Shown: positions 9,781 to 64,000, counted from the stretch's first letter. The stretch is DNA of 64,000 nt from Patescibacteria group bacterium (GCA_030583805.1 CP129476.1:509429-573428), one strand, 5' to 3'. Translations and numbers: made by a program. Notes: generated by a model from the letters alone, not told the origin.

Positions 9781-10233
9781 ATGAACGCCATTCTCGCCAC
9801 GAACGACAAAGCGCGGTACGACTACGAGTTCCTCGAGAAGATCGAGGCGGGCTTAGTGCTCTCCGGCCAGGAAGTGAAGTCCGCCAAGACCGGCCACCTC
9901 AAACTCAAGGGCGCGCACGTCACGTTCCATCGCGGCGAAGCGATGCTGACCGGCGCGCACATCGCCCGGTACCCGAAAGCCGGCCCCCTCCCCGACTACG
10001 ACCCCGAACGCTCGCGCAAGCTCTTGCTCCACAAGAAGGAAGTGAACCGTTTGCGCGGAAAACGCGAGGAAGACGGATTGACAATCGTGCCGATTCGTGC
10101 TTATATAAAGGGCGGCCGCATCAAAGTGGAGCTCGCCGTCGCGCGCGGCAAGAAGCAATTCGAAAAGCGCGAGGCGATCAAAAAGCGCGACCTCGAACGC
10201 GAGGCGCGAGGCCGGATGAAGATCCGGCGGTAA
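9781..10233 (+). CDS. smpB: SsrA-binding protein SmpB
   Basis: 150 aa: ...YDYEFLEKIEAGLVLSGQEVKS...GAHIARY...LLLHKKEVNRL...KGGRIKVELAVARGKKQFEKRE.... This is the canonical SmpB length and motifs, and it lies directly upstream of the tmRNA. Confidence 0.9.
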   Translation: MNAILATNDKARYDYEFLEKIEAGLVLSGQEVKSAKTGHLKLKGAHVTFHRGEAMLTGAHIARYPKAGPLPDYDPERSRKLLLHKKEVNRLRGKREEDGLTIVPIRAYIKGGRIKVELAVARGKKQFEKREAIKKRDLEREARGRMKIRR

Positions 10234-10268: not shown

Positions 10269-10671
10269 GGGGATGACTAGATTCGATGGAGTTCGTTCTC
10301 AATTCGCGCAGGTTGACGGAGCCTTCCCGTCATGAATAAAAAGGCAAACGACTACGTGCCAACGTTCTCGCAAAAGTGAAGACGGCGTTCGCTAACGCGT
10401 TCGCTCCGTCCTTCGCTCCGGTCCTCGCCTAAGCGCGACTGACCCATCGCCCGTCGACATCTTCTAGACGGATCACGGTGTTATAAGAAGGTCCGCCGCA
10501 TGTTCCGCCGAGAGGCATGCGATACGGTTGGATCCAGGCACGGACGCATACGACTCGTCGCCTCTATGTATGTGCTCCGGTCCCTCACGGGAAAACTCGA
10601 GACGACTACGCCTGTAGTGCGCATTGTCCTACTTCCTCCAGACCCGGGTGCGAATCCCGGCATCTCCACCA
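10269..10671 (+). ncRNA. ssrA: tmRNA (ssrA)
   Basis: The 5' end GGGGAUGACUAGAUUCGAUGG resembles the canonical GGGGCUGAUUCUGGAUUCGACGG. The 3' end has a tRNA-like T-arm GGUGCGAAUCCCGG, then CAUCUCC pairing with the 5' GGGGAUG acceptor stem, then ACCA. It lies immediately after smpB. The internal tag ORF is ambiguous (a GCA resume codon follows AAAAAG; candidate frames end ...APVLA-stop or ANDYVPTFSQK-stop). Confidence 0.8.
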
Positions 10672-10679
10672 AAGAAAAG
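10647..10679 (+). repeat. 33-bp direct repeat copy 1 (ggtgcgaatcccggcatctccaccaaagaaaag), the 3' end of ssrA; putative attL of the integrated island
   Basis: Exact 33-bp identity with 17000..17032, seen directly in the sequence. Confidence 0.85.
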
Positions 10680-10723
10680 TGTCTCTCTACGAGGGGTATT
10701 TTTCTTTTGAATTAACAGTGAAT

Positions 10724-10756
10724 AAAAACCATCCTGAGACTACCAGGATGGTTTTT
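10724..10756. terminator. Hairpin aaaaaccatcctg-agacta-ccaggatggttttt, a bidirectional terminator candidate between ssrA and the 3' end of the HTH-HNH gene
   Basis: Perfect 13-bp inverted repeat with flanking A/T runs, seen in the sequence. Confidence 0.5.
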
Positions 10757-11771
10757 GTCTCCTCCTTGCGCCCCCCATGCACTTATTGCAGTAGACGCCC
10801 AGGTTTTTAAGGGAGTGGTCCTTGGTACTCCTCAGGTGAATAACATTCAGATCCTTGCCGAACCGTTTCTTATGTTCAGTTCTTTTCAGACCACACTTTT
10901 CACACTTCTCCCCCGCCGCCATCATGGCTTTTTCCCTATTGCCACCAAAGTCACGGTAGTCGTAGAAGCATCGTAAACAATATCCATGTTGGAAGTGTTC
11001 ATCAGTGGTCGTCCCACATCCGCGGCATTTCTCGTATTTACGTGACCACCTATCCCCCAAGCTATTAGACTTGGACATGTTCCTTTTGAACATGCATGAA
11101 CTACAAAGCACGATAAGATTTTCGAGGTCGCTGCCATCTCCAACCTTTTTTACGACGTTGAGGTCGTTGCCCGATTTCTTGTTGTACTCGTCTCTTGAGA
11201 TTCCGCAGTCCTCACAACTCTGCCGAGCCCGCTCAAGCGCCTTTTCTCGATTACCTCCAAAAGCGATTGCATCGTACCAACAGTTCGTGCAATACCCCTC
11301 TCTGAGATGCTTATACTTTGTCTTTCCGCAAAGTCTGCAACGTAGGTAGTTTCTCGCCCATCGAGACTTCACCTCTCGCTTTAACTTTTGATACTTTTCA
11401 AATACCGCTGGTACATACTTCTCCAGCTCTTCTTCCGTAACGTCGTATTGAAGCAGGAACCGTCCGTGGTGCGTGAAGGAGTCGATTGCCCTGAACATCT
11501 CGTCTTCTTTTTCCAACAGACGCGCACCCTTCACACGAGTCCTTGCGTCTTCGTGCGTCTTTTTTTTCGCCTCCACGAATGCCTTGAGATCAATCGCGAA
11601 GCCCCTTTCAACCATCGCGTTCACCTCGTCGTGCCAAAGTCTGTTCAGCAGCTGTCGAATGCGCTCCCGAGAAAGCCCAAGCTTGTCCCCGATTTCCTGG
11701 AACGTGTGGCCTTGCGCATAGAGGACCCCGACTGTGGCGTCCCGCTGGCTGTCTTTCTCAGGGGGGTTCAC
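10740..11771 (-). CDS. Sigma-70 region-4-like HTH protein with two tandem HNH-like nuclease repeats (each CxxC ... NL..LC..C)
   Basis: N-terminal GHTFQEIGDKLGLSRERIRQLLNRL is a sigma r4/LuxR-like HTH. Repeat 1: CRLCGKT...CTNC...CEDCGISRDEYNKKSGNDLNVVKKVGDGSDLENLIVLCSSC. Repeat 2: CRGCGTT...CLRC...CEKCGLKRTEHKKRFGKDLNVIHLRSTKDHSLKNLGVYCNKC. Low-GC codon usage. Confidence 0.55.
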   Translation of the reverse strand: MNPPEKDSQRDATVGVLYAQGHTFQEIGDKLGLSRERIRQLLNRLWHDEVNAMVERGFAIDLKAFVEAKKKTHEDARTRVKGARLLEKEDEMFRAIDSFTHHGRFLLQYDVTEEELEKYVPAVFEKYQKLKREVKSRWARNYLRCRLCGKTKYKHLREGYCTNCWYDAIAFGGNREKALERARQSCEDCGISRDEYNKKSGNDLNVVKKVGDGSDLENLIVLCSSCMFKRNMSKSNSLGDRWSRKYEKCRGCGTTTDEHFQHGYCLRCFYDYRDFGGNREKAMMAAGEKCEKCGLKRTEHKKRFGKDLNVIHLRSTKDHSLKNLGVYCNKCMGGARRRQKPSW

Positions 11772-11780
11772 ACGGCGCGC

Positions 11781-13874
11781 TTAGCTCTCAAGACTGAAGG
11801 CGTCATCCGTCAGGAATGCCGACAAATCCTTCGACGCGGCCGAAAGGACACCGATCAGCATGTTGTTGACCGCTTCATCTACTCGAGCCGCGTTAAAGTT
11901 CTCCGGCTCCTTCCTCTCAAGCTCGAAGATGAGGTCCTTTTGGAAGATTTCCAAATACCGATTGAAGAGGAAGGTGCGGAACTGCAACGATTTCGCTCCG
12001 TATTTGTCGAGAATGTACCTCGCCATCGGATTTGCCGTGTTGATCCAGTAGATGCCGTGGGCAAGATCTTCCCTTCTTTGGAAGACGACCGTGTGACGCG
12101 GGGTAAGCTCCACTGGACCATTCACGATGCCAAGTGGATCCACATCATGATTCGAAAGAAGCACTTGTTGCGGCTTGGGGCCCTTGGACTTGCCCGAAGA
12201 ATCATCTTTCACCACGCGAACGACGATACGCGCCTCGTGTCCACCGACTTCCGCCGTGATTTCCGAAGTCGCATCCAGCTTCTCGCCAGTCACAAAAGCC
12301 TTCAGTACGCCGACTTGCGCACCGCTTGCTGCAATCTTCAGGTCGTCGCTCGAGACCACGATGGTGTCGGAGTCCATCGTGACATCAGCACCACTGCTCT
12401 TGAGGGCGATAACCGCACCGACAGGGATCTCCTCAGGACTACGAGTCTTCAAGATGAGCGGGTATTTAACCTTCAGCGGGATGTCGATTTCGGACACCAA
12501 GAACTCCAGTGCGCTTTCGGGCTCTTCGAGCGTTTTCTTTTTCGTGCCCTTGTTTCCTGATTTGTCGCCGCCCTCGGAACCCCCGATGGTCTCCTCAATC
12601 AGCTTCCTCATGACCTTGTCCTTCCAGTCGTTCAGGAACTTGTTGAACTCCGAAGAGATTTTGCGGTCGTTTTCCGCATTATCCTTTCTATCCTTCTCAG
12701 CGATTTCTTTCGCGAGTTTGTCTACCTCTTGGGCAATCCAGCTCAGGAGCGCCCTGGTACGTTCGTTGTTGACGAGTTCCACGCGATCGTTCTGCACGCT
12801 GTCGTGTTCCGCGCTCTCAAGAATCTCGCAGTTTTCAAGTTCACCCCAGATGTGGTTGGCTTGCGGGAAGTTCTTGATTTCAAGCCTGCCGAAGGGATAG
12901 GAGGCGATGCCGCCGACCTCACCAATGACGTCCAAACGATTCAGTTCGCCGTACTTGCTGCCGTCCAACGCGATCTCAGACGTGTGCAGCACGAGGCGCC
13001 CCGCGGAATACTTCGCAGACCCAATCACCACTTCGCCCTCCCCGTCCGTATTCGCCAACGGCAACTTATCAGGAACGGTGACGATTTTGGGTGTTTCGAA
13101 TCCTGAGTAGGGTTGCAGCTTCTCCGGAACGAGCTTTCCGTAAAGAGACTCACCGTTCTTGAATACAGATAATGTGATGCGGTTCAGCACCCGCATAAGC
13201 TGCGGGTGGTGCCTGAGTTTTTCGATAATCTGTTCGGGAGCCTGTGACTTCTTCCTTTTCGCAGAATCTTCACGCTTTGGGGAGTACCCCCAAACGATCG
13301 TAAAACCTGTCTTACCTTTCTCAAGGAGTTGCCTGGCAGTTTTGGGAATATTTTGCTTCTGGATGTTCCCAAGCTTCAAGGCCGCATCGAGTGAAAGCTT
13401 TCGGCCCTGATATCCTTCGTCGTATCCGTACCTTCGGTCTTCATTGAACCCGAATACACTGATTTTGCCGTCCTTATAGGTAACGAAATGCGCGTGCTCG
13501 AACATCTGCCTCATGTAGAACTTCCCCCCGTTTCCATGGCCACCAAAGGTTTTCACATCCTTGCCACGCGTTGCGGCAAGGGCGCTAAACCATTTCTTGA
13601 AAGCCGATTCGATGTCCGTATCATCCATGCCAACAAAATCGAGACAGCCCACGGCTTCTTCGCCATCCAAATCGTCCTCAAAGAGGAGGATTACCGAGGT
13701 GTCATCGTCAGAAAAATCCGAACGCTTATAAGCGTCGATGGAGTTCTTGATCCATTCGGCGATTCCTTTGGGGTGATTGAAGCTGAACGCCTGACCCATG
13801 AAATCGAGCGCGCGCTCTTCGTCCAGAATCGCTCTCTCTGCCTTGATGACAAAACCCTTTTTACTTTTCGGCAT
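11781..13874 (-). CDS. GHKL-superfamily (Bergerat-fold, HATPase_c_3/MORC-like) ATPase, 697 aa, with a long C-terminal extension of unknown function
   Basis: N-box EWIKNSIDAY (ExxxNSxDA). G1-like VGCLDFVGMDDTD. G2-like FGGHGNGGKFYMRQMF. The 4-nt spacing to the downstream HTH-HNH gene suggests an operon. No nuclease motif is recognisable in the remaining ~500 aa. Confidence 0.55.
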   Translation of the reverse strand: MPKSKKGFVIKAERAILDEERALDFMGQAFSFNHPKGIAEWIKNSIDAYKRSDFSDDDTSVILLFEDDLDGEEAVGCLDFVGMDDTDIESAFKKWFSALAATRGKDVKTFGGHGNGGKFYMRQMFEHAHFVTYKDGKISVFGFNEDRRYGYDEGYQGRKLSLDAALKLGNIQKQNIPKTARQLLEKGKTGFTIVWGYSPKREDSAKRKKSQAPEQIIEKLRHHPQLMRVLNRITLSVFKNGESLYGKLVPEKLQPYSGFETPKIVTVPDKLPLANTDGEGEVVIGSAKYSAGRLVLHTSEIALDGSKYGELNRLDVIGEVGGIASYPFGRLEIKNFPQANHIWGELENCEILESAEHDSVQNDRVELVNNERTRALLSWIAQEVDKLAKEIAEKDRKDNAENDRKISSEFNKFLNDWKDKVMRKLIEETIGGSEGGDKSGNKGTKKKTLEEPESALEFLVSEIDIPLKVKYPLILKTRSPEEIPVGAVIALKSSGADVTMDSDTIVVSSDDLKIAASGAQVGVLKAFVTGEKLDATSEITAEVGGHEARIVVRVVKDDSSGKSKGPKPQQVLLSNHDVDPLGIVNGPVELTPRHTVVFQRREDLAHGIYWINTANPMARYILDKYGAKSLQFRTFLFNRYLEIFQKDLIFELERKEPENFNAARVDEAVNNMLIGVLSAASKDLSAFLTDDAFSLES

Positions 13875-13882
13875 AACTTCAG

Positions 13883-14491
13883 CTATCTCACTACGTCAAA
13901 TACGGCCTTGCCGAGTTTTTTCTGCAAAAACCCGTAATACTCTGTGAGGCTTTTTACGAGCTTCGGCTCGAAACCACTCTTCCTGGCCTCATCGAGTGCT
14001 GTTCCTACCACGGCAATCCGTCCAGTCAGTTCCTCTGGTTTGGTTCTCACGCTTACTCCCAGGAACGAGTAGAGATCGGCCTCGATGATGTCGTCCGTCT
14101 TTCCGGTAAGATAGAGCGCAAATCCTTCAAGTCCTTTCATACGCAGAATCTCGGTCGCCGTAGAACGAGAAAGCCGGCTCGTGTCGTTTTTGACGGGCTT
14201 ACTCTTCCCGGAAAGCCTTCGCGCCTCGTCCAAGCCCCTAACAGTAAGGGAGAACATCTTGTTGGACGAACGGAGAAAGCCCGCCTTCTTGAGATTCGTA
14301 TAGAGCGGCTTGTGAACCAGGTCACCCGAATCGGGGTACTGCCGGTAGCCTTTCAGGTGGAAGTTGTCTGGGAAGAGCTCGTATACCTTGACTACTATGT
14401 CCTCATACCTGAGCGATTTGGTGCTGTCCTTGGACAACTCAAACATCGCCAGGAGGATTTTTTCCGATCTCGAGAGCGTGTCGTTGCTCAT
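13883..14491 (-). CDS. Hypothetical protein (202 aa) of the island
   Basis: Clean low-GC ORF MSNDTLSRSEKILLAMFELSKDSTKSLRYEDIVVKVYELFPDNFHLKGY.... The 8-nt gap to the GHKL gene suggests an operon. No recognisable motif. Confidence 0.4.
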   Translation of the reverse strand: MSNDTLSRSEKILLAMFELSKDSTKSLRYEDIVVKVYELFPDNFHLKGYRQYPDSGDLVHKPLYTNLKKAGFLRSSNKMFSLTVRGLDEARRLSGKSKPVKNDTSRLSRSTATEILRMKGLEGFALYLTGKTDDIIEADLYSFLGVSVRTKPEELTGRIAVVGTALDEARKSGFEPKLVKSLTEYYGFLQKKLGKAVFDVVR

Positions 14492-14492
14492 A

Positions 14493-14783
14493 TCACAGGC
14501 TGAAACCGTCGCCGTTTTTTGAACTCGTAAACCTGTCTTTTACCATTCGGAGCTCCCTATCTACTGCAGAAAACATCTTCCTGACTTCAGCCTCAGTATA
14601 GTCATACTGGCTCTTATTCGACAGATTACCGAGGCTTTTGATGCGCCTTAGGATGTTGTTTACCCGCAGGGTTGCGATACGCTTAAACTTGTCCGATTTT
14701 GTCTCTTTATTTTGCGACATATTTGGAGAATATTTGTCGAATATTGTTGCGCTATCTTTACCAAATATACACAAATCCGTCAA
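14493..14783 (-). CDS. Hypothetical small protein (up to 96 aa; an alternative start at MSQNKETK gives 75 aa)
   Basis: ORF sits between the dcm and the 202-aa gene with a 1-nt gap to the latter. Lys-rich. No motif. Confidence 0.3.
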   Translation of the reverse strand: MTDLCIFGKDSATIFDKYSPNMSQNKETKSDKFKRIATLRVNNILRRIKSLGNLSNKSQYDYTEAEVRKMFSAVDRELRMVKDRFTSSKNGDGFSL

Positions 14784-14799
14784 ATATGCCCGAGCCCCC

Positions 14800-15783
14800 T
14801 TAACGAGAGGCAGTGTCCATTGCCCTTTTCATCTCCTTCGCGATTTCCCTGATAACCGGAACGGCGACCGAGTTTCCAAGGAGCTTATATGCCTGCCTGA
14901 CCGTCACAGGCATCTTGAACCCCTTATTAAAACCTTGTAGCGCCTTGCATTCATTAACCGTTAGACGTCTGATGCCCAAGGTATTAATCGGGCTTTTCAA
15001 GTCCGCTCCTTCGCCGCCATCCGAAGGAAGAATGCGGTCTTTCACAAGGTTCCTTTCCCTACCCATATTGCCAGCCACGAACGTATTGGCGATACCTTCG
15101 GGATCCAACACGCAATATCCGAAGTTGCTACCCGCATCGGAGTGCCTCTGCTTGTGCTTAATCAAACCGTCCATGTACTGCTTACTCAAGTAGTGGGACG
15201 GATGTGCGCCTTTCTCCAAAATCTCCTTCAATGGTTTTGGTGCTTTTCTTTTAAGATTATTGAAGCTGAAGTCTATTTTTGGGTTTTTAAATCCAACAAT
15301 AAAAACTCTTTCACGTTTTTGTGGTACTCCGAAGTCCTTGGCATTAAGTACCGCGACGTGGACCTGGTAGCCCAACTTCACTCGTAGAGACCGGAGTATC
15401 GTTTTGAGTGTCTCTCCACCTTCGTGTGAGACCAAGGCTTTCACGTTTTCAAACATGAAGGCCTTCGGTCGAGTCCTGTCGATTAAGTGCTCTAACACGA
15501 AAAAGGCGTTCCCACGAACGTCTTCGAAACCATGTCCCTTTCCTGCCCTCGAGAAGGGCTGACATGGGAAGCCTCCGAGCAATACGTCGTATTTAGGAAT
15601 CTCGAGTAAGTCAACCTCTTCGAGCGGCTTACATACGATCGGACCGTGGTTTGCGGCATAGACAGTTGCAGCATGCGCATCCATGTCGTTGGCAAAGACC
15701 GTCTGGAAGCCAGCCTTCTCAAAACCTAAACGAATACCGCCGATTCCGGCGAATAGGTCGATGCATCTATAGGCCTTCTTCAT
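14800..15783 (-). CDS. dcm: DNA (cytosine-5)-methyltransferase (Dcm-type C5-MTase)
   Basis: Motif I CIDLFAGIGGIRLGF. Motif IV GGFPCQPFSRAG. Motif VI ENVKAL. Motif VIII QKRERVFIVGF. Motif X KLLGNSVAVPVIREI. 327 aa. Confidence 0.9.
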   Translation of the reverse strand: MKKAYRCIDLFAGIGGIRLGFEKAGFQTVFANDMDAHAATVYAANHGPIVCKPLEEVDLLEIPKYDVLLGGFPCQPFSRAGKGHGFEDVRGNAFFVLEHLIDRTRPKAFMFENVKALVSHEGGETLKTILRSLRVKLGYQVHVAVLNAKDFGVPQKRERVFIVGFKNPKIDFSFNNLKRKAPKPLKEILEKGAHPSHYLSKQYMDGLIKHKQRHSDAGSNFGYCVLDPEGIANTFVAGNMGRERNLVKDRILPSDGGEGADLKSPINTLGIRRLTVNECKALQGFNKGFKMPVTVRQAYKLLGNSVAVPVIREIAKEMKRAMDTASR

Positions 15784-15924
15784 ACCGCTACAGTATAGTT
15801 CGAGCTTGATTTAGTGTCACTTTTCGGCGTTCAGAGCCCGGGATTGTTGGGGCGATCATGACGGACGGGTCCAAAATCAAAGACAGGATCAGAGATGATC
15901 CTGTCCGATGACTTTTTGGTACGG

Positions 15925-16364
15925 TTAGAAGGCGAAGGAACCGCTCTTGGAGCTACAGACAACGATGGTCACCTCTTTAGCCAAGTCGTCGATGTAGTGC
16001 CCCACCTCGTCTTCTTTCTTGTTTCTAACCTTAAGGGCCACATGCCCATCTTTCTTTCTACTTGTAAGTAACTTTGTGAACTTCTTAAACTTTTTATTGT
16101 GCTCAACAAAGTTGTTTCGATAGTACTCAATAAAAACTCCCTTAACCAAACCTTTCGGCGTTAGATACAAGGAGATTTCTTTGTTGACGTTGTAGAGGCG
16201 TGCATTCCTCGGCATTTTTGGCAGACCCCACTCCAAAGAGTCCATTTCTGAGTCATACTCAAAAACCCAACCATCTTTTTTGGCCAGTGAATCGAGATGG
16301 AGAATCTCGCTTTTAACAGTTTTGGTTACGTCGTGGGTCATATGATTTGCGGCTATGGCCATTT
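15925..16364 (-). CDS. Hypothetical protein of the island (about 146 aa starting MAIAANHMTHDV); the track ORF extends further 5' into an implausible Arg-rich overlap
   Basis: The low-GC Lys-rich body (...WVFEYDSEMDSLEWGLPKMPRNARLYNVNKEISLYLTPKGLVKGVFIEYYRNNFVEHNKKFKKF...) only begins after about residue 70 of the track ORF. Confidence 0.35.
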
Positions 16365-16724
16365 CCCGTGTACGCACGTCGTCTGGCCGTGTTCCCTGGG
16401 CTCGATTGCGTCGTCGTAATAGGTAGTTCGAACTGCGGCGGGGCTCGCGCCACTGATCTGGACAACGACCTTCACGAAGTTGTGACGAACCTGCCCGGAA
16501 GGCGTTACTTTGGTGCCAAGGGACCGATAGTAGCAGAGGGCGCCGGCGACCGACAGACTTTCGTAAACCCACTGCGGTGATACCAAGACGAGCTTCACCT
16601 TCTTGAGGTAGCTCTTATGTGCGAGGTATGGGCGCTTTGCAAGGTGATTCACGCGATTCACCTCATGGAAAACGACCCGTCGCCCTGCATAATCAGTGCA
16701 GTCTAAGCAGTTGCTCGGGGGCAT
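16353..16724 (-). CDS. Hypothetical protein at the attR-proximal end of the island (123 aa, CxxC ... H-rich N-terminus); possible decayed nuclease or recombinase remnant
   Basis: MPPSNCLDCTDYAGRRVVFHEVNRVNHLAKRPYLAHKSYLKK.... It overlaps the upstream part of the 15925..16572 track ORF, so only one of the two frames is real there. No confident motif. Confidence 0.25.
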   Translation of the reverse strand: MPPSNCLDCTDYAGRRVVFHEVNRVNHLAKRPYLAHKSYLKKVKLVLVSPQWVYESLSVAGALCYYRSLGTKVTPSGQVRHNFVKVVVQISGASPAAVRTTYYDDAIEPREHGQTTCVHGKWP

Positions 16725-16999
16725 ACGGAGACGCTATGGGACCACGACCTCGGGCTGTTGTCAAATGGCTGTGGCGGACACTACTGCGCTCATAATAGCA
16801 TAATCGCAGACCAAAAGCAGGACCGTTCCCGATCCTGCTGTGGCCTGCTTGGTGCCCATCTGGTGCCCAAAATCCGTCGTTGGGTGGCGAACCCTGTCGA
16901 CATCTGGCGAAGGGTGAAACGGGTCATTTCCGCCAACCTTCGGTCAGAATCGGTAGTTATCGGCTAACCATAGGCCTTGTCAGGTTTAGGCGAAGGGCA

Positions 17000-17032
17000 G
17001 GTGCGAATCCCGGCATCTCCACCAAAGAAAAG
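17000..17032 (+). repeat. 33-bp direct repeat copy 2 (ggtgcgaatcccggcatctccaccaaagaaaag), a displaced copy of the ssrA 3' end; putative attR
   Basis: Exact identity with 10647..10679. It is followed by its own hairpin plus T-run (cctct-ccg-agagg cgtttttctttt). Confidence 0.85.
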
Positions 17033-17089
17033 CGCCCCTCTCCGAGAGGCGTTTTTCTTTTGTCATGCTACACTTACCCCAAGACACCT

Positions 17090-36615: not shown

Positions 36616-36693
36616 GGGCCAGTAGCGCAGCCCGGTTAGCGCGTCTCCCTGTCACGGAGAAGGTCGCGGGTTCGAATCCCGTCTGGCCCGCCA
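36616..36693 (+). tRNA. tRNA-Asp (anticodon GTC), CCA encoded
   Basis: Manual fold: acceptor GGGCCAG/CTGGCCC. D-arm GCGC-AGCCCGGTTA-GCGC. Anticodon arm TCTCC-CTGTCAC-GGAGA (anticodon GUC). T-arm GCGGG-TTCGAAT-CCCGT. Discriminator G plus CCA. Confidence 0.9.
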
Positions 36694-36776: not shown

Positions 36777-37859
36777 ATGCGTGTCCCCATTTCTCCACAG
36801 GCCCTGCTCGAGCGATTGGCCGCCGTCGCGCACCTGACCCAAGGCATCGAGGCGTTGGGCATCATGGCGTTTATCACCGATCCCGACGGCCACATCCTCT
36901 TCGCCAACGAGGCGACGGAGCGGATCACCGGCTTTACGCGCAAGGAAATGATCGGTCGCAACCCGGGAGACCTATGGGGCGGGCAGATGCCCGAAGCGTT
37001 TTACGTCGATTTTTGGAAGACGATCAAGACGGACAAAAAACCGTTCGTTGCGGAAATGCACAACCGCCGAAAAGACGGCGTGATGCACTGGCAAGAGATG
37101 TTCGTGACGCCGATTATGGCGGAGAACGGTGACGTGGAATTTTTCATCGCGGTCGAACCCGATATCACCGAACGCAAAGAACGCGAAAAGTTCCGAGAGG
37201 AATTTACGAGCATCTTGAGTCATCAGCTCAAGAATCCGCTCACGGCCGTGAACTGGACGATCGAACTTCTTCTGGAGCGCAACGGTTTGCGCCCGGACCA
37301 GAAGGCGGCTTTGCATGACGCCTATGAGGGCAGCAAAAGCATGGTCGGCCTGATCGAAGACCTCGTCACGATTTCCCGCCTCGGACAAACACCGGCCCAC
37401 AACGACAGCGTGAACATCGTGCAGGAGCTGGACGAGGTCGTTGCGCTCGCGAAGCGGCATCATCCGAAGGTCGTCGTCGACTATCAGCCGCCGGCCGCAA
37501 CCAACTTCGTAACGAGTCGCGTCTTGATGCTCCAAGTACTGTCGAACATCGTCTCCAACGCGTTCGAATATGCGGATGCGGAGGCGCCGAAGGTGCGCAT
37601 CGCGATGCATATTTCGGATCGCATGATTCGCCTCGAGGTTGAAAACAACGGCCTGACGATCCCGGCTGACGCGAAAGAAAAAATCTTCGACAAGTTTTAC
37701 CGCACCGAAGCCGCGGCGGCATACAAGGCCAGCGGCACCGGCCTCGGCCTGTTCATCGTCAAAATGATCTGCGACACGTTCGGGTGGAAGATCGGCTTTG
37801 AAAGCCCGCGCAGCGAAAAGGGAGGAACGATGTTTTACGTAGAGATGCCTCGCACATAA
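36777..37859 (+). CDS. PAS-domain sensor histidine kinase (PAS + HisKA + HATPase_c); no response regulator is adjacent
   Basis: PAS: ...ITDPDGHILFANEATERITGFTRKEMIGRNPGDLW.... H-box FTSILSHQLKNPLTAV. N/G boxes ...LSNIVSNAFEYA...GTGLGLFIVKMICD.... Start taken at MRVPISP because the track's ATG at 36693 overlaps the tRNA. Confidence 0.8.
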   Translation: MRVPISPQALLERLAAVAHLTQGIEALGIMAFITDPDGHILFANEATERITGFTRKEMIGRNPGDLWGGQMPEAFYVDFWKTIKTDKKPFVAEMHNRRKDGVMHWQEMFVTPIMAENGDVEFFIAVEPDITERKEREKFREEFTSILSHQLKNPLTAVNWTIELLLERNGLRPDQKAALHDAYEGSKSMVGLIEDLVTISRLGQTPAHNDSVNIVQELDEVVALAKRHHPKVVVDYQPPAATNFVTSRVLMLQVLSNIVSNAFEYADAEAPKVRIAMHISDRMIRLEVENNGLTIPADAKEKIFDKFYRTEAAAAYKASGTGLGLFIVKMICDTFGWKIGFESPRSEKGGTMFYVEMPRT

Positions 37860-37933
37860 AAAAACCGCCCGGCAAAGGGGCGGCGAGTGCGCCCCTTGGC
37901 AATTTCGGCGGAATCGGCAACACTGGCCGCATC

Positions 37934-38626
37934 ATGCCCTTTCTTCATCTGCATTGCATGAAGGATACTTCGGTTTCCGACATGGAGGCTTCCGCGATCG
38001 CCGAGACGGCCGGAATCCCGCTCGGAGCGCTCCGTTCCGCGAGGCCTTTCGAAGCGCCTGTCCCCTCCGCGGCGCTCGATGGCGTTTCCGGACTGCTCAT
38101 CGGCGGCTCGGCCTGGTCCGTCTTCGAAGAGATTCCTTGCTACGACGCCTTCGTCGCGCTGCTTCACGAAGCCCGTCGACGTCGGCTGCCGATGTTCGGC
38201 ATCTGCTTCGGCGCGCAGGCGATCGCCCACGTGTTCGGCGGCCGCGTCGTGCGCGATCACGACCGCGCGGAATACGGAACGATCGACGTGCATCGGGAGG
38301 ACGACGTCGACGACCTCTTTGCGGAGCTGCCGCTTCGTTTCCGCGCCCAGGCGTGGCATCAAGACCGCATCGTCCAGCTCCCGGCAGGAGCGGCAGCGGC
38401 CGCTTGGAGCCAGGACGCGGTTCTGCAAGCCTTCGCGTTTCGCGACGCGCCGATCTGGGGCGTGCAGTTCCACCCGGAACGCACGCGCGAGACGTTCGAG
38501 AAGCTGCTCGAAACGCGCCCAGCGCCTTGCGAAGCGCATCCGATCGAGCGTATCCGCGCTTCGCTGGTCCCGACGCCGCGGGCCGCCTCCCTCCTTGCCC
38601 GATTCGTGCGCTATGCGCAACGCTAA
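37934..38626 (+). CDS. Class I glutamine amidotransferase-like protein (GATase1)
   Basis: Cys nucleophile elbow MFGICFGAQAIAH. GVQFHPERT. C-terminal His/Glu. Confidence 0.75.
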   Translation: MPFLHLHCMKDTSVSDMEASAIAETAGIPLGALRSARPFEAPVPSAALDGVSGLLIGGSAWSVFEEIPCYDAFVALLHEARRRRLPMFGICFGAQAIAHVFGGRVVRDHDRAEYGTIDVHREDDVDDLFAELPLRFRAQAWHQDRIVQLPAGAAAAAWSQDAVLQAFAFRDAPIWGVQFHPERTRETFEKLLETRPAPCEAHPIERIRASLVPTPRAASLLARFVRYAQR

Positions 38627-59533: not shown

Positions 59534-61321
59534 TTATGGGAGGAAACCGCAGGCGACCTGCGAGGGTACGCCGTTGCAGCAGAACGCTTCGTTTCCGGTG
59601 CAGACCGTTTGGCCCGCGCCCGGATAGAAGCAGTTCTGACGCAAGTCGCGCAGGCCCGAAGTCAGGCTGAGCGCGTACGGCTGGTTGATCGACAAGAGAT
59701 CGTGGTCGATGATGCCTTTCGTCTGGTCCGGATCGCCGCCGGCGACCGAAGAAACCGACTCGGTCGCGAGCGAGAAGTTGGTCGGAGCGCCGTTCGCGCC
59801 GGGCACGAGCTTCGCGTTATCGCTCGTGAAGCTCGCCGAGCTCATGAGCTTCGAGAACGTCACGGACATCGGCAGATCGCGGGCGATCGAGCCCTGCAGC
59901 ACCGCCGGTTCGTGCGAAACCACGACAGGCGGCACGAGATCGATTTCGTTGGAGGTGCGGAAGTCGTAGTCGTAGTCGTCGTCCGGAGAACCTTGCGCCG
60001 CGCCGTTGCCGTTGCCGTCGAGCGAATTGCCCGCCATGTCGGTGATGCCGTTCGGAGGATAGATGCCGAGCGGCGGCGCGGCCGTGAGCGCGTCGGCGCG
60101 GACGCTGACGTTGATCTGCTGGTTGGCCGGGAGACAGAAGACCTGCTCGCCGCACGAGTTCGTGCCGCACGATTCGTCCGTGCGGAATTCGACGGTGCGG
60201 TAGGCGTTGCCGATTTGCTCCCGGCCCGCGACGACGTTGCCGCCCGACCGCGTGATGGAGAAGCCGGAGCCGACGCTGACCGGATCGATCGCTTCATTGA
60301 ACGTGACGTGGACGAGCGAGTTGCGCGGAACGCCGCTCGCGCCGTCGGCCGGCACGACGTACGAAACCTGGGGCGGCGTAAGATCGAGTACGGTCGACAC
60401 TTGGAACTCCCAGAGATAGCCGGAGTTGAACGTGCCGGTGAAGGCCGGAGCACCCCCGTCGCGCCGCACGCCGTCGGTGCCGCCGCGAAGCGCGATCGTA
60501 TAGAAGACGTTTTCCGTCGGGCTGCCGAAGCAGTTTGCCGGACAGTTGCGCTGCAGGAACGTGAAGCTGCGGCCGTCGGCCGAAACGGCGACGTCGATGT
60601 CCGCGGCCGTCAGGCTCTGGGCGAATTTCTGAGGGAATTGATTCGAAGCCGCGCCCACGTCGACCGATTTCAAGATGGCGACCGTGGCATTGGCTCCGCC
60701 CACGACGATCGAGGCGGGATCGATGCGCTGCTTGAAAGTCACGACAACGCGCGTGTTGCGCGCGACGCCGGTGGCGTTGCGATTCGGGTAGTGGCTTTCG
60801 ATGATGCCGTTGCCCAAGGCGCCCGCCGGACACGTCGCGGAAAGGCCGATGCAGGCGATATCGTTCGGCGCGCTGGAACCGCCGCCCGTGCCTCCCCCGC
60901 CGAGCGCGCCGCCCTCGCCGAGCAGCCTGCTGATGACGAACGAGGTGATGGCGAACGCCGACAGCATAATCACGAGGCCGATCACGGCGGACGTCAGGAT
61001 TTTCTTGGCGCGATCGACCTTCTCGGGATCGCCGGCAGCCGTCATCCAAATGAAGCCGGCGTACAAGACGAGGAGAAGCGCGATCGTGCCGAGGAAACCG
61101 AAGAATGCGCGAATGATGCGCGCGATCGTGATGCGGATGTCGCCCGTGCCGGTGCCGATGACTTCGCCGATCTCGGTCGGCAGCACTTCATTCGACGTGA
61201 CGCCTTGCGCCTGCGCGACATGCGCGAATGCGTAAGACGCAAAAACCACCAACACGAAACTGGCGACCGTGAAGGTGGCTTTGACGAGCGTTTGGGAGAG
61301 TGACTTCCTTCCTGAGAGCAT
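59534..61321 (-). CDS. 595-aa surface protein sharing the VirB2/TrbC-pilin-like N-terminal anchor and Gly linker with the giant gene, then Ig-like/BIG-like beta domains and a Cys-rich C-terminus
   Basis: ...AQAQGVTSNEVLPTEIGEVIGTGTGDIRITIARIIRAFFGFLGTIALLLVLYAGFIWMTAAGDPEKVDRAKKILTSAVIGLVIMLSAFAITSFVISRLLGEGGALGGGGTGGG.... A stretch of ~60 nt is nearly identical to the giant gene (gatgcgcgcgatcgtgatgcggatgtcg.ccgtgccggtgccgat). Confidence 0.8.
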   Translation of the reverse strand: MLSGRKSLSQTLVKATFTVASFVLVVFASYAFAHVAQAQGVTSNEVLPTEIGEVIGTGTGDIRITIARIIRAFFGFLGTIALLLVLYAGFIWMTAAGDPEKVDRAKKILTSAVIGLVIMLSAFAITSFVISRLLGEGGALGGGGTGGGSSAPNDIACIGLSATCPAGALGNGIIESHYPNRNATGVARNTRVVVTFKQRIDPASIVVGGANATVAILKSVDVGAASNQFPQKFAQSLTAADIDVAVSADGRSFTFLQRNCPANCFGSPTENVFYTIALRGGTDGVRRDGGAPAFTGTFNSGYLWEFQVSTVLDLTPPQVSYVVPADGASGVPRNSLVHVTFNEAIDPVSVGSGFSITRSGGNVVAGREQIGNAYRTVEFRTDESCGTNSCGEQVFCLPANQQINVSVRADALTAAPPLGIYPPNGITDMAGNSLDGNGNGAAQGSPDDDYDYDFRTSNEIDLVPPVVVSHEPAVLQGSIARDLPMSVTFSKLMSSASFTSDNAKLVPGANGAPTNFSLATESVSSVAGGDPDQTKGIIDHDLLSINQPYALSLTSGLRDLRQNCFYPGAGQTVCTGNEAFCCNGVPSQVACGFLP

Positions 61322-61348
61322 GGGACAGGAGGGTAGGGTTTCCCGGAA

Positions 61349-61804
61349 CTACGCTTTGTTTTGCAAGAACTCTTTGACCTTTTTGCCGACCAGGCCGCCG
61401 TCGGCCTTTCCCTTCAATTCTTTCATCATTTCGCCCATAAGGCGACCGAACGCGGCTTCGCCGGAGAGTCCGAGCTCGGTGGCTTTTTTGACCACGGCGG
61501 CTTGAACGTCTTCTTCGGAAAGCTGCGCAGGGAGAAACGTTTCGAGGAGCGCGAGTTCGGACTGCGTCGATTCGGCCAAGTCCTTGCGATCGGCCTTCTC
61601 GAAATCCGAGAGGGCATCGCGCAATTTTTTGACTTCGCGTCCGATGACTTCGATCGCCTCGTCATCGCTCAGCTCTTTCACTTGCTTGTCGATCTCGGCA
61701 TTTTTCATGGCCGAGCGGAGCATGCGAAACGCGGATACGGCCGGGGCGTCCTTGGCCTTCATCGCTTCGACGAACCGCTTTTCGATGTCGCTTCTGAGAG
61801 ACAT
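61349..61804 (-). CDS. GatB/YqeY-domain protein
   Basis: MSLRSDIEKRFVEAMKAKDAPAVSAFRMLRSAMKNAEIDK...LSDDEAIEVIGREVKKLRDALSDFEKADRKDLAES...LLETFLPAQLSEEDVQAAV.... Canonical YqeY. It directly follows rpsU as in Bacillus rpsU-yqeY. Confidence 0.9.
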   Translation of the reverse strand: MSLRSDIEKRFVEAMKAKDAPAVSAFRMLRSAMKNAEIDKQVKELSDDEAIEVIGREVKKLRDALSDFEKADRKDLAESTQSELALLETFLPAQLSEEDVQAAVVKKATELGLSGEAAFGRLMGEMMKELKGKADGGLVGKKVKEFLQNKA

Positions 61805-61807
61805 AGC

Positions 61808-62059
61808 TTAACGATGAGTACGTTTCTTGGCGCGGAGGTCTTCTTCTTTCAGCTTGCCGCTTTTGAGCAGATACTCGCGGCGGGCGGCCAGGAACTGGCG
61901 GCGGAGCGCGGCGTCGCGCTGGCCGTTCTTGTTCTTTTCAGCCGTGTGAAAACGGGTTTTCTTGGCTTGCAGAACGCGGCCGGACTGCTGAATGCGGCGG
62001 CTGAAACGACGAAGCAGAGCTTCAAAGCTCTCTCCCTTTTTGCGTTTGACTTCAACCAC
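61808..62059 (-). CDS. rpsU: 30S ribosomal protein S21 (GTG start)
   Basis: MVEVKRKKGESFEALLRRFSRRIQQSGRVLQAKKTRFHTAEKNKNGQRDAALRR.... AAGGAAGG SD is 8 nt upstream of the GTG. Confidence 0.85.
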   Translation of the reverse strand: MVEVKRKKGESFEALLRRFSRRIQQSGRVLQAKKTRFHTAEKNKNGQRDAALRRQFLAARREYLLKSGKLKEEDLRAKKRTHR

Positions 62060-62090
62060 AACAATACACCTTCCTTTCTACTTAAAAATA

Positions 62091-62107
62091 GTGAGACCGG
62101 GTCTCAC
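62091..62107. promoter_or_regulatory. Perfect 17-bp palindrome gtgagacc-g-ggtctcac about 32 nt upstream of the rpsU start, in the 5' leader/promoter of the long rpsU...pyk operon; candidate operator or leader hairpin
   Basis: Seen in the sequence. Its function is inferred only. Confidence 0.3.
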
Positions 62108-62146
62108 AAGCACAGTACCAGAGCGGGAAACGAAGGTCAATAAGGC

Positions 62147-62175
62147 AAAAATCCGCCGGTTAAGGCGGATTTTTG
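62147..62175. terminator. Bidirectional terminator-like hairpin aaaaatccgcc-ggttaa-ggcggattttt
   Basis: Perfect 7-bp stem with A-run and T-run on either side. It lies about 290 nt beyond the stop of the 62462..62791 minus-strand gene and upstream of the rpsU promoter. Confidence 0.5.
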
Positions 62176-62461
62176 GGGAGATTCTCAAGTAATTTTGCCT
62201 ATATCAACCGCTAGTCCTGCACGAGGAATACGCGGCATATATCATGCCGCCTACAACAGACCCCTATTTTCACGCAAGTCTAAGGTGTCCCTTTGGTGTC
62301 AGGTACGGATACTTGCAACCTGATAGGACAACGCCGTCGCCCCGTCATACTCATGGCCAGCGAAAGCGCGCTGACCGACACCTACTCCGGTTTTTTCGAT
62401 GGTTTCGACCATGTCTCAAACGGGTCGCTCGGTCTTTCGCGCTTATGGAATCATGGAGCCA

Positions 62462-62791
62462 TTACACCGACATCAGTTGATGAAGTGTCAACCAGAACCC
62501 ATAAACACTTACCAGTGCAACAACTAACATTGCAGTATTCAGTATTAAGTATTTGTTTCGATGTATCACGATACTAGTAATCGGCAGGGCGAGCAGGACA
62601 AGGAAATAGATACTCACCACCATGACTCCTGCCGAAGTGGCATAAGTGGCCACGGCGAATATTGAGACAGGAATGATGGCAAGGGTTTGAAGAATCTCAC
62701 CACTCCAGAGCGAAGCAACAAGCAAGATGGCGTGCATGACAAGCAGGATAACCTCGAAATCAACTAGAAGTCTTTTATAGATGTCGCGCAT
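62462..62791 (-). CDS. Small membrane protein in the low-GC patch (start taken at MRDIYKRL)
   Basis: Three hydrophobic helices. The codon usage is AT-rich and unlike the core genes. Confidence 0.35.
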   Translation of the reverse strand: MRDIYKRLLVDFEVILLVMHAILLVASLWSGEILQTLAIIPVSIFAVATYATSAGVMVVSIYFLVLLALPITSIVIHRNKYLILNTAMLVVALVSVYGFWLTLHQLMSV

Positions 62792-62944
62792 ATGTGCTGT
62801 TAGTAGCCGAAGAGTCCCGAGAAGAGTATGCCGAGGAGACCACCGTTCAACGCACCTACACGCTGTTGTTGAGTCGTCGTATCGCGGGGAGAATTGCCCC
62901 AAGCATACCACGGTGCCATGTCCATAGCGGCATGATTTCCGTTG

Positions 62945-63599
62945 GTATCGGTACCTGGTACTTAGGGGTCAGGTGAGAACCGCGTGGTACTCACCAATCT
63001 TTGATACGCACTTTGGCGCTCTAGGTCGGTTGCACCGAGCGTTTCGTAAAAAGGATCGACGGTCACGAGCGGATCAGTCTCTCCAAAAGCGTACACTCCA
63101 TAGCTTGAATAGTGCCATTTTTCTGGCGATGCGACGAGTTTGGCGCGGACTGGGTTCATTTCAATGTAATTTCCACAGGCAAAGAGATACGGATCAGTAG
63201 CGACGATCAGGCTTTTGAAGCGCCCTTGCCAAACATGCCCCACAAACTTGTATTTCTTGCAGTACCGCTTAGCGAACGGCATCTGCACGGCGTGCATGAA
63301 GGAGGAAAGGTCCGAAGTGGGCTTCGCCAAGATGTGCACGTGGTTTGGCATGAGGACGTAGTGATAGATCGTCACTCTGTGATCCTTGGCCGCGTTCAGT
63401 AGGTATTTAAGATACGCATCGTAGTCGTCGGCGTCATGAAAAACACGCATCTTATTGTTGCCACGTACGATGACGTGATAGATGCCGTCGGGGACGACAA
63501 CATAATTCCGGAGCGCTCTTGGCATAGCGCTCCGGATCTACAACACGGTACTCAATTCATGCAAGCCTCACCTGGCACCTGGGTACCAGGTACCGATAC
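62945..63599. mobile_element. IS200/IS605-family or RAYT-like element (about 655 bp): a Y1 HUH transposase gene flanked by imperfect 33-bp terminal inverted repeats with a perfect 17-bp core
   Basis: Left end gtatcggtacctggtacttaggggtcaggtgag (62945-62977). Right end ctcacctggcacctgggtaccaggtaccgatac (63567-63599). The 17-bp core gtatcggtacctggtac / gtaccaggtaccgatac is an exact reverse complement. Low GC. Subterminal hairpin ggtgag...ctcacc at 62972-62995. Confidence 0.7.
62962..63525 (-). CDS. Y1 (HUH) transposase, IS200-like / REP-associated tyrosine transposase
   Basis: MPRALRNYVVVPDGIYHVIVRGNNKMRVFHDADDYDAYLKYLL...YHYVLMPNHVHILAKP...VGHVWQGRFKS.... The HxH (HVH) motif and the catalytic Tyr region are present. 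187 aa. Confidence 0.85.
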   Translation of the reverse strand: MPRALRNYVVVPDGIYHVIVRGNNKMRVFHDADDYDAYLKYLLNAAKDHRVTIYHYVLMPNHVHILAKPTSDLSSFMHAVQMPFAKRYCKKYKFVGHVWQGRFKSLIVATDPYLFACGNYIEMNPVRAKLVASPEKWHYSSYGVYAFGETDPLVTVDPFYETLGATDLERQSAYQRLVSTTRFSPDP

Positions 63600-63606
63600 A
63601 CGATGA

Positions 63607-63928
63607 CGCGATTGGGCGAATCAGGATACGGCGAGCAAACGCCATTAAGCGCGTTCCGACGCTTCATATGCGAAATGTCGTCGATGAGGCGGTGCGGCAA
63701 TTCAGCGCGTCGGTACGGCGAGGGTTGGTGAAGTTCAGGGACGACATTCCCGGGTGGCAGTTCATCAAGAGCCATGTCGAGAAGGTGATCTATCACCGCA
63801 GCAAGGTGACGCTGATCGGCTCGGTGCCGATTGGTGACGATGCGTCAGAGGCCAACAGGATTCCGTTTAGGATCGACGGGCAGATCCAGCGACACATGAG
63901 ACGCGATCCGAATGCGATAATCGCTTAG
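63607..63928 (+). pseudogene. Probable 3' gene remnant. The open frame runs out of the right inverted repeat with no plausible start context (an ATG appears only at 63668).
   Basis: The frame ...DDAIGRIRIRRANAIKRVPTLHMRNVVDEAVRQFSASVRRGLVKFRDDIPGWQFIKSHVEKVIYHRSKVTLIGSVPIGDDASEANRIPFRIDGQIQRHMRRDPNAIIA-stop is continuous back into the IR. This could be the C-terminus of a gene disrupted by the insertion, or element-encoded. Very uncertain. Confidence 0.25.
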
Positions 63929-64000
63929 GCTGCGATGAAAAAGAGTGCCCGCATCTGTGGGCACTCTTTTTCTCAACGACTACCGACAACGCGGCACTAT

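Follow-up and report, generated by a model that had tools for sequence, protein, structure and literature searches.

A Dcm-like C5 methyltransferase of a Patescibacteria genomic island heads a recurrent five-gene cassette with a MORC-like ATPase

The Methylase and Its Operon

Within a stretch of 64,000 nucleotides from the genome of a Patescibacteria group bacterium (GCA_030583805.1, CP129476.1:509429-573428; hereafter the window, with positions counted from its first letter) a gene encoding a Dcm-type C5 DNA methyltransferase (methylase) is located at positions 14800-15783. An earlier note on this DNA had called the enzyme solitary and had offered two options, namely an orphan or epigenetic methyltransferase, or restriction by a GHKL ATPase together with an HNH protein encoded downstream. 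The label solitary has to be dropped, as the methylase heads a cassette of five genes which recurs across phyla and in which it probably constitutes the modification arm of a restriction-modification (R-M)-like defence system with a MORC-like ATPase. The function of the cassette was read solely from sequence, predicted structure and gene neighbourhood. The identity of the methylase, the island, the arrangement of the operon, the conserved gene set and the folds of the ATPase and p202 are established, and the role in defence, the sensing of methylation and the choice of the cutting component are deductions. The genes and the signals of the operon are the following (aa, amino acids; ORF, open reading frame):

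14800-15783, minus strand: Dcm-like C5 DNA methyltransferase, first gene of the operon (PF00145, TIGR00675, full motif set)
14493-14720, minus strand: p75, helical protein of 75 aa (start set at the ATG at 14720 and not at the TTG of a 96-aa ORF)
13883-14491, minus strand: p202, winged-helix protein of 202 aa carrying a helical domain at its C-terminus; obligate ATPase partner
11781-13874, minus strand: MORC-like GHKL+S5 ATPase of 697 aa (motifs and fold)
10740-11771, minus strand: c4, protein of 343 aa with a sigma-70 region-4 helix-turn-helix (HTH) and two zinc-ribbon/HNH-like modules (PF04545, E=7e-8; alignments)
15792-15820, minus strand: promoter-like site GTGACA-17-TATACT directly upstream of the methylase ATG (consensus match only)
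15881-15906, minus strand: terminator-like hairpin between the upstream ORFs and the methylase operon, with an 11-bp stem and a T-rich tail (consensus match only)

The genes follow one another on the minus strand in the order methylase, p75, p202, GHKL ATPase and c4, and the last four are co-directional and spaced by 1-9 nt (gaps of either 8-9 nt or 1 nt, in the latter case with a stop codon overlapping the following ATG). With 10 of 12 consensus positions the promoter-like site is the best sigma-70-like match on the island that carries the operon. Members of the p75 family with a length of about 75 aa were found in 45 related loci.

The methylase itself is ordinary. Its 327 aa match PF00145 over residues 5-319 (E=1.4e-86; 291 bits at a cut-off of 22) and the dcm model TIGR00675 (E=1.5e-86; 291 bits at a cut-off of 100.65), and motifs I (FAGIGG, 11-16), IV (PCQPFS, 73-78), VI (ENV, 112-114), VIII (QKRER, 155-159), IX (RRLTVNEC, 272-279) and X (GNSV, 303-306) are all present, which bears out the earlier description of a complete canonical motif set. 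The enzyme can be aligned end to end with Dcm of E. coli, including the target-recognition region, at 35% identity, and cassette-linked methylases of 20 other loci are 45-49% identical to it. The score obtained with the Dcm subfamily model NF007772 (target CCWGG) was 182.5 bits and thus far below the cut-off of 710, so that the target sequence cannot be named. A k-mer analysis of the window for a methylated motif gave an observed-to-expected ratio of 1.0 for CCWGG, and none of the GC-rich palindromes was strongly avoided. In PADLOC-DB v2 the methylase matched the models MTase_II, DrmMII and DruM, and the other six ORFs matched none.

For the detection of a very-short-patch repair endonuclease (Vsr), 33 Vsr proteins (PF03852) taken from related loci were used as queries against the 64-kb window. 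The best tblastn hit (E=0.005) lies at 32.5 kb and thereby far outside the island, and the hidden Markov model (HMM) built from the same proteins reached E=0.19 at best. Searches of the neighbouring ORFs with Pfam, NCBIfam and PADLOC assigned no restriction endonuclease, no Vsr and no other nuclease, and the predicted structure of p202 combines a winged helix with a helical domain and shows no nuclease fold. The statement that the methylase has neither a Vsr nor a recognisable restriction endonuclease beside it therefore stands, also after a profile search of the neighbouring ORFs, which the earlier note had named as a possible refutation.

The Genomic Island

The operon is part of a region of deviating base composition, with a GC content of 0.49-0.55 over approximately 10-17 kb versus 0.60-0.67 in the flanks. 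The following features delimit this region or lie within it beside the operon:

10269-10671, plus strand: transfer-messenger RNA (tmRNA) gene ssrA, integration target of the island (Rfam RF00023, 76.2 bits, E=1.1e-28, full length)
10647-10709: left copy of a direct repeat of 63 nt, comprising the tmRNA 3' end and terminator, island edge (repeat search)
17000-17062: right copy of the 63-nt direct repeat, island edge (repeat search)
15925-16724, minus strand: two overlapping ORFs outside the conserved cassette, 16724-16353 (123 aa) and 16362-15925 (145 aa)

The tmRNA gene was missed in the window by ARAGORN and recovered with Rfam; smpB is located upstream of it (9781-10233). The two repeat copies are 89% identical and spaced by 6353 nt, and thus define an island of 6.35 kb at the tmRNA 3' end. 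That the methylase is island-borne, as had been proposed, is hence established by the GC dip, the tmRNA target and the direct repeats. The tmRNA attachment core is not common to the other loci.

No integrase gene is present between 10647 and 17062; the island has perhaps decayed or is mobilised in trans. Related cassettes often adjoin genes of large serine recombinases or tRNA genes. Between 10672 and 17000 the tetranucleotide AATT occurs once, compared with about 17 expected sites, and CTAG is absent; this scarcity may have been left by the avoidance of restriction sites in former hosts. The 123-aa and 145-aa ORFs overlap by 10 nt upstream of the methylase in a layout resembling toxin-antitoxin pairs. 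Neither has a match in any of the 82 related loci described below nor a usable family match in Pfam, NCBIfam or PADLOC, and the 145-aa ORF is an ORFan with one single homolog in a collection of 5.8 billion proteins.

Conservation of the Cassette in Related Loci

For the comparison 82 related loci were sampled, 80 of which were fetched via two peptide patterns, by which the sampling is biased, and two of which (L081 and L082) were taken from assemblies. The loci were analysed by tblastn, ORF clustering and family HMMs, and co-occurrence was counted in the 41 loci with at least 4 kb of flanking sequence on both sides; these counts include related genomes and do not represent independent events. 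The 82 loci span Patescibacteria and at least eight other phyla.

L081 (85% identity) and L082 (51%) contain the same five genes as the window, co-directional and in the same order, and both adjoin tRNA genes; L082 carries a divergent Vsr gene and L081 none. A C5 methylase is encoded within 6 kb of the ATPase gene in 31 of the 41 fully flanked loci. This recurrence, the gene block shared with L081 and L082, and the occurrence of the cassette in three gene orders do not agree with the orphan option of the earlier note. Its second option pointed in the right direction and has to be corrected with respect to the partners, since those conserved with the ATPase are p202 (adjacent in 38 of 41 loci) and p75 (28 of 41), small ORFs which the note had passed over, and not the HNH protein. 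A multi-HTH partner with sigma-70 region 4, either of the HNH-like type (c4) or of a type with an RNA polymerase alpha C-terminal domain (alpha-CTD) and HARE-HTH (c5), was found in 34 of the 41. Vsr genes were detected in 23, all among the 31 methylase-bearing relatives, and the missing Vsr of the window is therefore atypical for a methylase-bearing cassette.

The first of the three gene orders, which is of Parcubacteria type, consists of p75-p202-ATPase-c4 followed by a convergent methylase gene with or without Vsr. In the second, of Microgenomates type, a divergent methylase gene precedes p75-p202-ATPase-c5. The third, c5-p202-ATPase-methylase with or without Vsr, is found outside the candidate phyla radiation in Verrucomicrobiota, Acidobacteriota, Planctomycetota, Myxococcota and others, and here the start of the methylase gene directly adjoins the stop codon of the ATPase gene or overlaps it. 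The methylase subfamily covaries with the partner: window-type methylases occur together with c4 (20 of 21), and those with the motif PPCQGFS together with c5 or with neither partner (29 of 32). Co-inheritance could explain this covariation just as well as a functional match. In the minimal loci (L060-L062 and L085) only p202, the ATPase and a methylase::Vsr fusion are encoded, and c4 is missing. Such fusions have a length of 560-570 aa, are encoded directly downstream of the ATPase and come from Myxococcota, Planctomycetota and one IMG/VR contig. A separate gene for a Shedu-type nuclease is present in L006 (Pfam SduA_C) and, according to the same ORF cluster, in L013 and L016.

Since p202 and the ATPase persist where methylase, Vsr and multi-HTH proteins vary, the invariant core of the cassette is p202 plus the ATPase, usually joined by p75. 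Methylase, Vsr and multi-HTH proteins are clade-level additions to this core. Genes in the neighbourhood of the relatives encode Shedu nucleases, SRA, SIR2, HEPN and Fic proteins and serine recombinases, and insertion at tRNA or tmRNA genes was observed as well; such surroundings are typical of defence islands and mobile elements.

A distant clade (L084 and L086-L090, the latter including a few IMG/VR contigs) has the arrangement p75-ATPase-p202-like with an ATPase of about 800 aa and no adjacent C5 methylase. L084 is located on a conjugative plasmid of Ensifer adhaerens (NZ_CP118613.1, 59223-62548), and its p75 is 44% identical to that of the window. This cultured alphaproteobacterium is a possible tractable model organism for the core trio. 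In L026 the cassette is followed (13436-16966) by genes for an SRA-domain protein (E=6.5e-39) and a RelA/SpoT-domain protein of 1003 aa, which hints at a modification-dependent variant.

The MORC-Like ATPase

The ATPase is composed of a GHKL domain and transducer (aa 1-370), a long helix (371-430), an Ig-like insert (approximately 450-556) and a C-terminal domain (562-697). Bergerat-fold motifs I-III (ExxxNxxD, DxGxG-like, GxxGxG) place it in the GHKL superfamily, and the GHKL domain is followed by an S5-fold transducer, the combination (GHKL+S5) that characterizes MORC and paraMORC proteins. According to the predicted structure the fold is GHKL+S5 with MORC3, SMCHD1, MORC2 and MutL as nearest relatives: 286-301 residues could be superposed on the ATPase modules of MORC3, SMCHD1 and MORC2, and 262 on the N-terminal domain of MutL. 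The MORC-specific S5 motif GhXhhpXXRhl had no match in the protein even with one mismatch allowed, and the ATPase is accordingly not a MORC protein in the strict sense. Pfam HATPase_c_3 matched below threshold only, and a sequence search of the PDB with the whole protein gave no match.

The Ig-like insert is poorly conserved; it is missing in a class of about 605 aa and recognisable as Big_2 in a class of about 750 aa. The C-terminal domain is strongly conserved with the invariant residues D579, P580, R593, Q599, R600, D603, W610, I611 and N612, and its profile found no credible match in Pfam or the PDB. The PD-(D/E)xK domain DUF4263 (SduA_C) was not detected in any window protein by Pfam and PADLOC scans.

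More than 635 homologs of the ATPase were found in the database, every one of them annotated as hypothetical, and when 1.84 billion cluster representatives were searched with a profile, 532 clusters (50% identity) were obtained at E<=1e-3. The phage collection contained no relative, the plasmid collection one distant relative and IMG/VR six; a viral location is thus not typical of the cassette.

The c4 Protein and Its HNH-Like Modules

The label "HNH protein" given to c4 in the earlier note needs revision: the protein is a sigma-70 region-4/zinc-ribbon DNA-binding protein, 20 of 36 family members have an eroded HNH module, and c5 takes the place of c4 in other loci. In the window c4 comprises the HTH (aa 22-44), a degenerate module (137-226) and a second module (241-331) which keeps His312 and Asn323, two residues that are invariant in the window sub-clade. 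In the c4 family the zinc ribbon WSRYYxxCxxCG...H...GxCxxC is invariant, and the HNH-like treble clef follows it. The profile of the module matches the HNH domains of IscB, ZRANB3 and PDB 5h0m (E from 9e-5 to 5e-4), and Pfam HNH recognises 9 of 14 c4 family members, the window c4 not being among them. The alternative partner c5 consists of RNA_pol_A_CTD, Sigma70_r4 and HARE-HTH and contains no nuclease domain.

Relatives of c4 possess additional N-terminal alpha-CTD-like and DnaA-domain-IV modules. The modules of the variable partners (c4 in L002, L006, L014 and others; c5 in L030, L045, L049 and L050), which are sigma-70 region 4, alpha-CTD, DnaA domain IV (Bac_DnaA_C) and HARE-HTH, are those of the core DNA-binding machinery of the host. 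This unusual mixture could serve the reading of promoters or origins, or decoy sensing.

A Proposed Restriction Mechanism and Its Alternatives

We propose, with a probability of about 0.6, that the methylase is the modification arm of a horizontally mobile R-M-like defence cassette whose restriction arm contains the MORC-like ATPase. The proposal is based on the tight co-directional spacing of the genes, the same five genes in L081 and L082, the co-occurrence in the 41 fully flanked loci and the distribution over at least nine phyla, and further on the covariation of methylase and partner, the GHKL+S5 fold, the HNH homology of c4, the defence-island context and published precedent. The methylase would mark the host DNA with 5-methylcytosine (5mC), and c4 and p202 would bind DNA and read its methylation state. 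On unmodified incoming DNA the ATPase would dimerise and, with ATP, clamp or loop it in the manner of the GHKL modules of MORC, MutL and topoisomerases, and this clamping would license cleavage. As nuclease of the window lineage the second HNH-like module of c4 is a tentative candidate, for which we would put the odds somewhat below even. A general effector of the family it cannot be. In other lineages a Vsr-fold or Shedu-type nuclease or an unrecognised active site, for instance in the invariant C-terminal domain of the ATPase, may take this role; cutting by that domain or a non-nucleolytic action may be alternatives to the HNH-like module.

Several observations weigh against the proposal. 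A recognisable nuclease fold is missing from every component that all versions of the cassette share. The window c4 lacks both canonical metal ligands, with Ile instead of Asp/His before the catalytic His and Met instead of His/Asn after the second CxxC, and in the degenerate c4 relatives the His and Asn themselves are lost (motif "YITK"). CCWGG is not depleted in the window, its host part included. Among 39 well-flanked loci which keep the p202-GHKL pair, eight have no C5 methylase within 6 kb (L001, L007, L026, L029, L034, L052, L076 and L078); in place of it L026 has an SRA reader of 5mC and L007 an N6/N4 methylase. Two further loci (L070 and L073) possess neither methylase nor p202, and the distant clade consists of p75, ATPase and p202 only. 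Finally, no superfamily II (SF-II) helicase was seen directly beside the cassette in the loci examined, the 82 loci not having been searched systematically for helicases.

One alternative is a methylation-gated system that needs no nuclease, in which the ATPase would clamp or compact unmethylated incoming DNA, or would sense phage takeover proteins through decoy copies of sigma region 4, alpha-CTD and DnaA domain IV. Replication or transcription would then be blocked and the DNA left uncut, as in BREX or in the MORC silencing of eukaryotes. A core trio with no conserved nuclease, the composition of c4 and c5 from sigma-70 region 4, RNA_pol_A_CTD, Bac_DnaA_C and HARE-HTH, and the chromatin silencers MORC3, SMCHD1 and MORC2 as nearest structural relatives speak for it. 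HNH, Vsr-fold or Shedu nucleases are nevertheless present in many loci and the argument is indirect throughout, and we consider such a system unlikely. A bolder version, to which we attach an even smaller chance, regards the cassette as the prokaryotic equivalent of silencing by 5mC and MORC in eukaryotes, or as an immune sensor of the "integrated decoy" type, with no dedicated nuclease. The proteins with sigma-70 region-4, alpha-CTD, DnaA-domain-IV or HARE-HTH modules would then steer a MORC-like clamp that has a winged-helix partner resembling kleisins, and either an unmethylated invader would be shut down or phage factors hijacking host modules would be detected, with the methylase providing the mark of self. 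A role in repair is about as improbable as that. Here the GHKL protein and p202 would be MutL-like helpers recruiting or activating a Vsr-type nickase for T:G mismatches arising from 5mC deamination, by which a mobile Dcm-type methylase becomes tolerable for hosts possibly devoid of MutL, Patescibacteria among them, and the copy in the window would have lost its Vsr. The minimal loci with methylase::Vsr fusions fit this well. However, Vsr is missing from the window, L081 and seven other methylase-bearing loci, loci devoid of both methylase and Vsr exist, the ATPase model matches MORC-family proteins better than MutL, and diversifying multi-HTH partners in a defence-island context suit conflict systems better than housekeeping repair.

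The two conventional explanations of a methylase gene with no evident partner fare worse. A classical type II R-M pair would require the 145-aa ORFan (15925-16362) to be a fast-evolving restriction endonuclease; the ORF is indeed co-directional and located 141 nt upstream of the methylase, and restriction endonucleases often have no detectable homologs, as this ORF has only one. We nonetheless regard the pair as very improbable, for none of the 82 loci, not even L081 and L082 with their otherwise intact methylase operons, contains the ORF, it is separated from the methylase by the terminator-like hairpin and the promoter-like site, and its overlap with a second ORFan recalls a toxin-antitoxin layout. 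Least probable of all is a true orphan methylase beside unrelated island genes. It would account for the window, in which no restriction endonuclease or Vsr is detectable, but not for the synteny with the GHKL cassette, which recurs across phyla and gene orders at protein identities of 25-50% between phyla, values that argue against a single recently spread element.

Relation to Known Systems

The literature search found no description of the cassette. The closest precedent is the work of Iyer, Abhiman and Aravind (2008; PMC2292703), and the comparison with it refers to excerpts of that paper. In these, MORC and paraMORC genes are reported as neighbours of DCM methylase, Vsr and HNH genes that together form predicted R-M systems, GHKL/MORC-type ATPases are predicted to be restriction components and the source of the eukaryotic MORC chromatin silencers, and an SF-II helicase is found in most of the MORC neighbourhoods described. 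The cassette shares with these systems an N-terminal GHKL domain with intact ATP-binding motifs and an S5-type transducer, an extension C-terminal to S5 as in paraMORC1, the neighbourhood of DCM methylase, Vsr-superfamily and HNH proteins, and the sporadic distribution across phyla. It differs from the systems of the excerpted text by the missing GhXhhpXXRhl motif and the sub-threshold HATPase_c_3 match, by having no SF-II helicase noted, by the Ig-like insert and a C-terminal domain with no fold match in its ATPase, and by winged-helix, 75-aa and sigma-70 region-4 multi-HTH partners, which are not met with there. By analogy, and as far as these excerpts go, the cassette most likely belongs to the GHKL/paraMORC kind of R-M system predicted in 2008. 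New are the obligate partners, which were previously unannotated; for the ATPase, p202 and p75 no model of Pfam, NCBIfam or PADLOC reached its threshold.

Among the literature found, only the GHKL-Shedu fusion (paraMORC3/GHKL-Shedu) has been tested experimentally, with VcSduA as validated anti-phage defence protein (PMC12137116). In common is a GHKL ATPase that is thought to control a nuclease in anti-phage defence, and the relatives L006, L013 and L016 even have a separate SduA_C nuclease gene adjoining the cassette. In contrast to the single protein VcSduA, the window cassette comprises several genes including a methylase and has no DUF4263/PD-(D/E)xK domain. With the Dcm-Vsr system of E. 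coli and its MutL-stimulated very-short-patch repair the cassette shares a Dcm-like methylase, a MutL-like GHKL protein and, in most relatives, an adjacent or fused Vsr. Unlike that system, the cassette is island-borne and mobile with extra DNA-binding subunits, the window has no Vsr, and the ATPase is nearer to MORC and has no counterpart of the C-terminal domain of MutL. Classical type II R-M and HNH enzymes (McrA-like His-Me finger) likewise combine a C5 methylase with a Cys4 treble-clef HNH-like module, whereas in the cassette this module is terminal on a sigma-70 region-4/zinc-ribbon protein, devoid of the canonical metal ligands and not conserved across the family, and an ATPase and two further proteins are obligatory. 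CapK/CapS (GHKL kinase plus STAS; PMC13373217) was considered as well and rejected, as it is of anti-sigma-kinase type, has no S5 domain and has a different partner.

The cassette is a compact version with five genes that recurs widely (about 530 clusters at 50% identity) and is abundant in Patescibacteria. Resolving how 5mC, ATP and the promoter- or origin-type modules are used would add a defence system to the little that is known of immunity in this phylum. The mechanism would also provide a direct test of the hypothesis that MORC proteins originated from R-M systems, and might reveal a new nuclease domain or non-nucleolytic restriction.

Further dips in GC content occur elsewhere in the window, one at 37000-38000 (0.56) beside tRNA-Asp (36616-36693) and one at 61000-64000 (0.49-0.58), and may represent additional islands.
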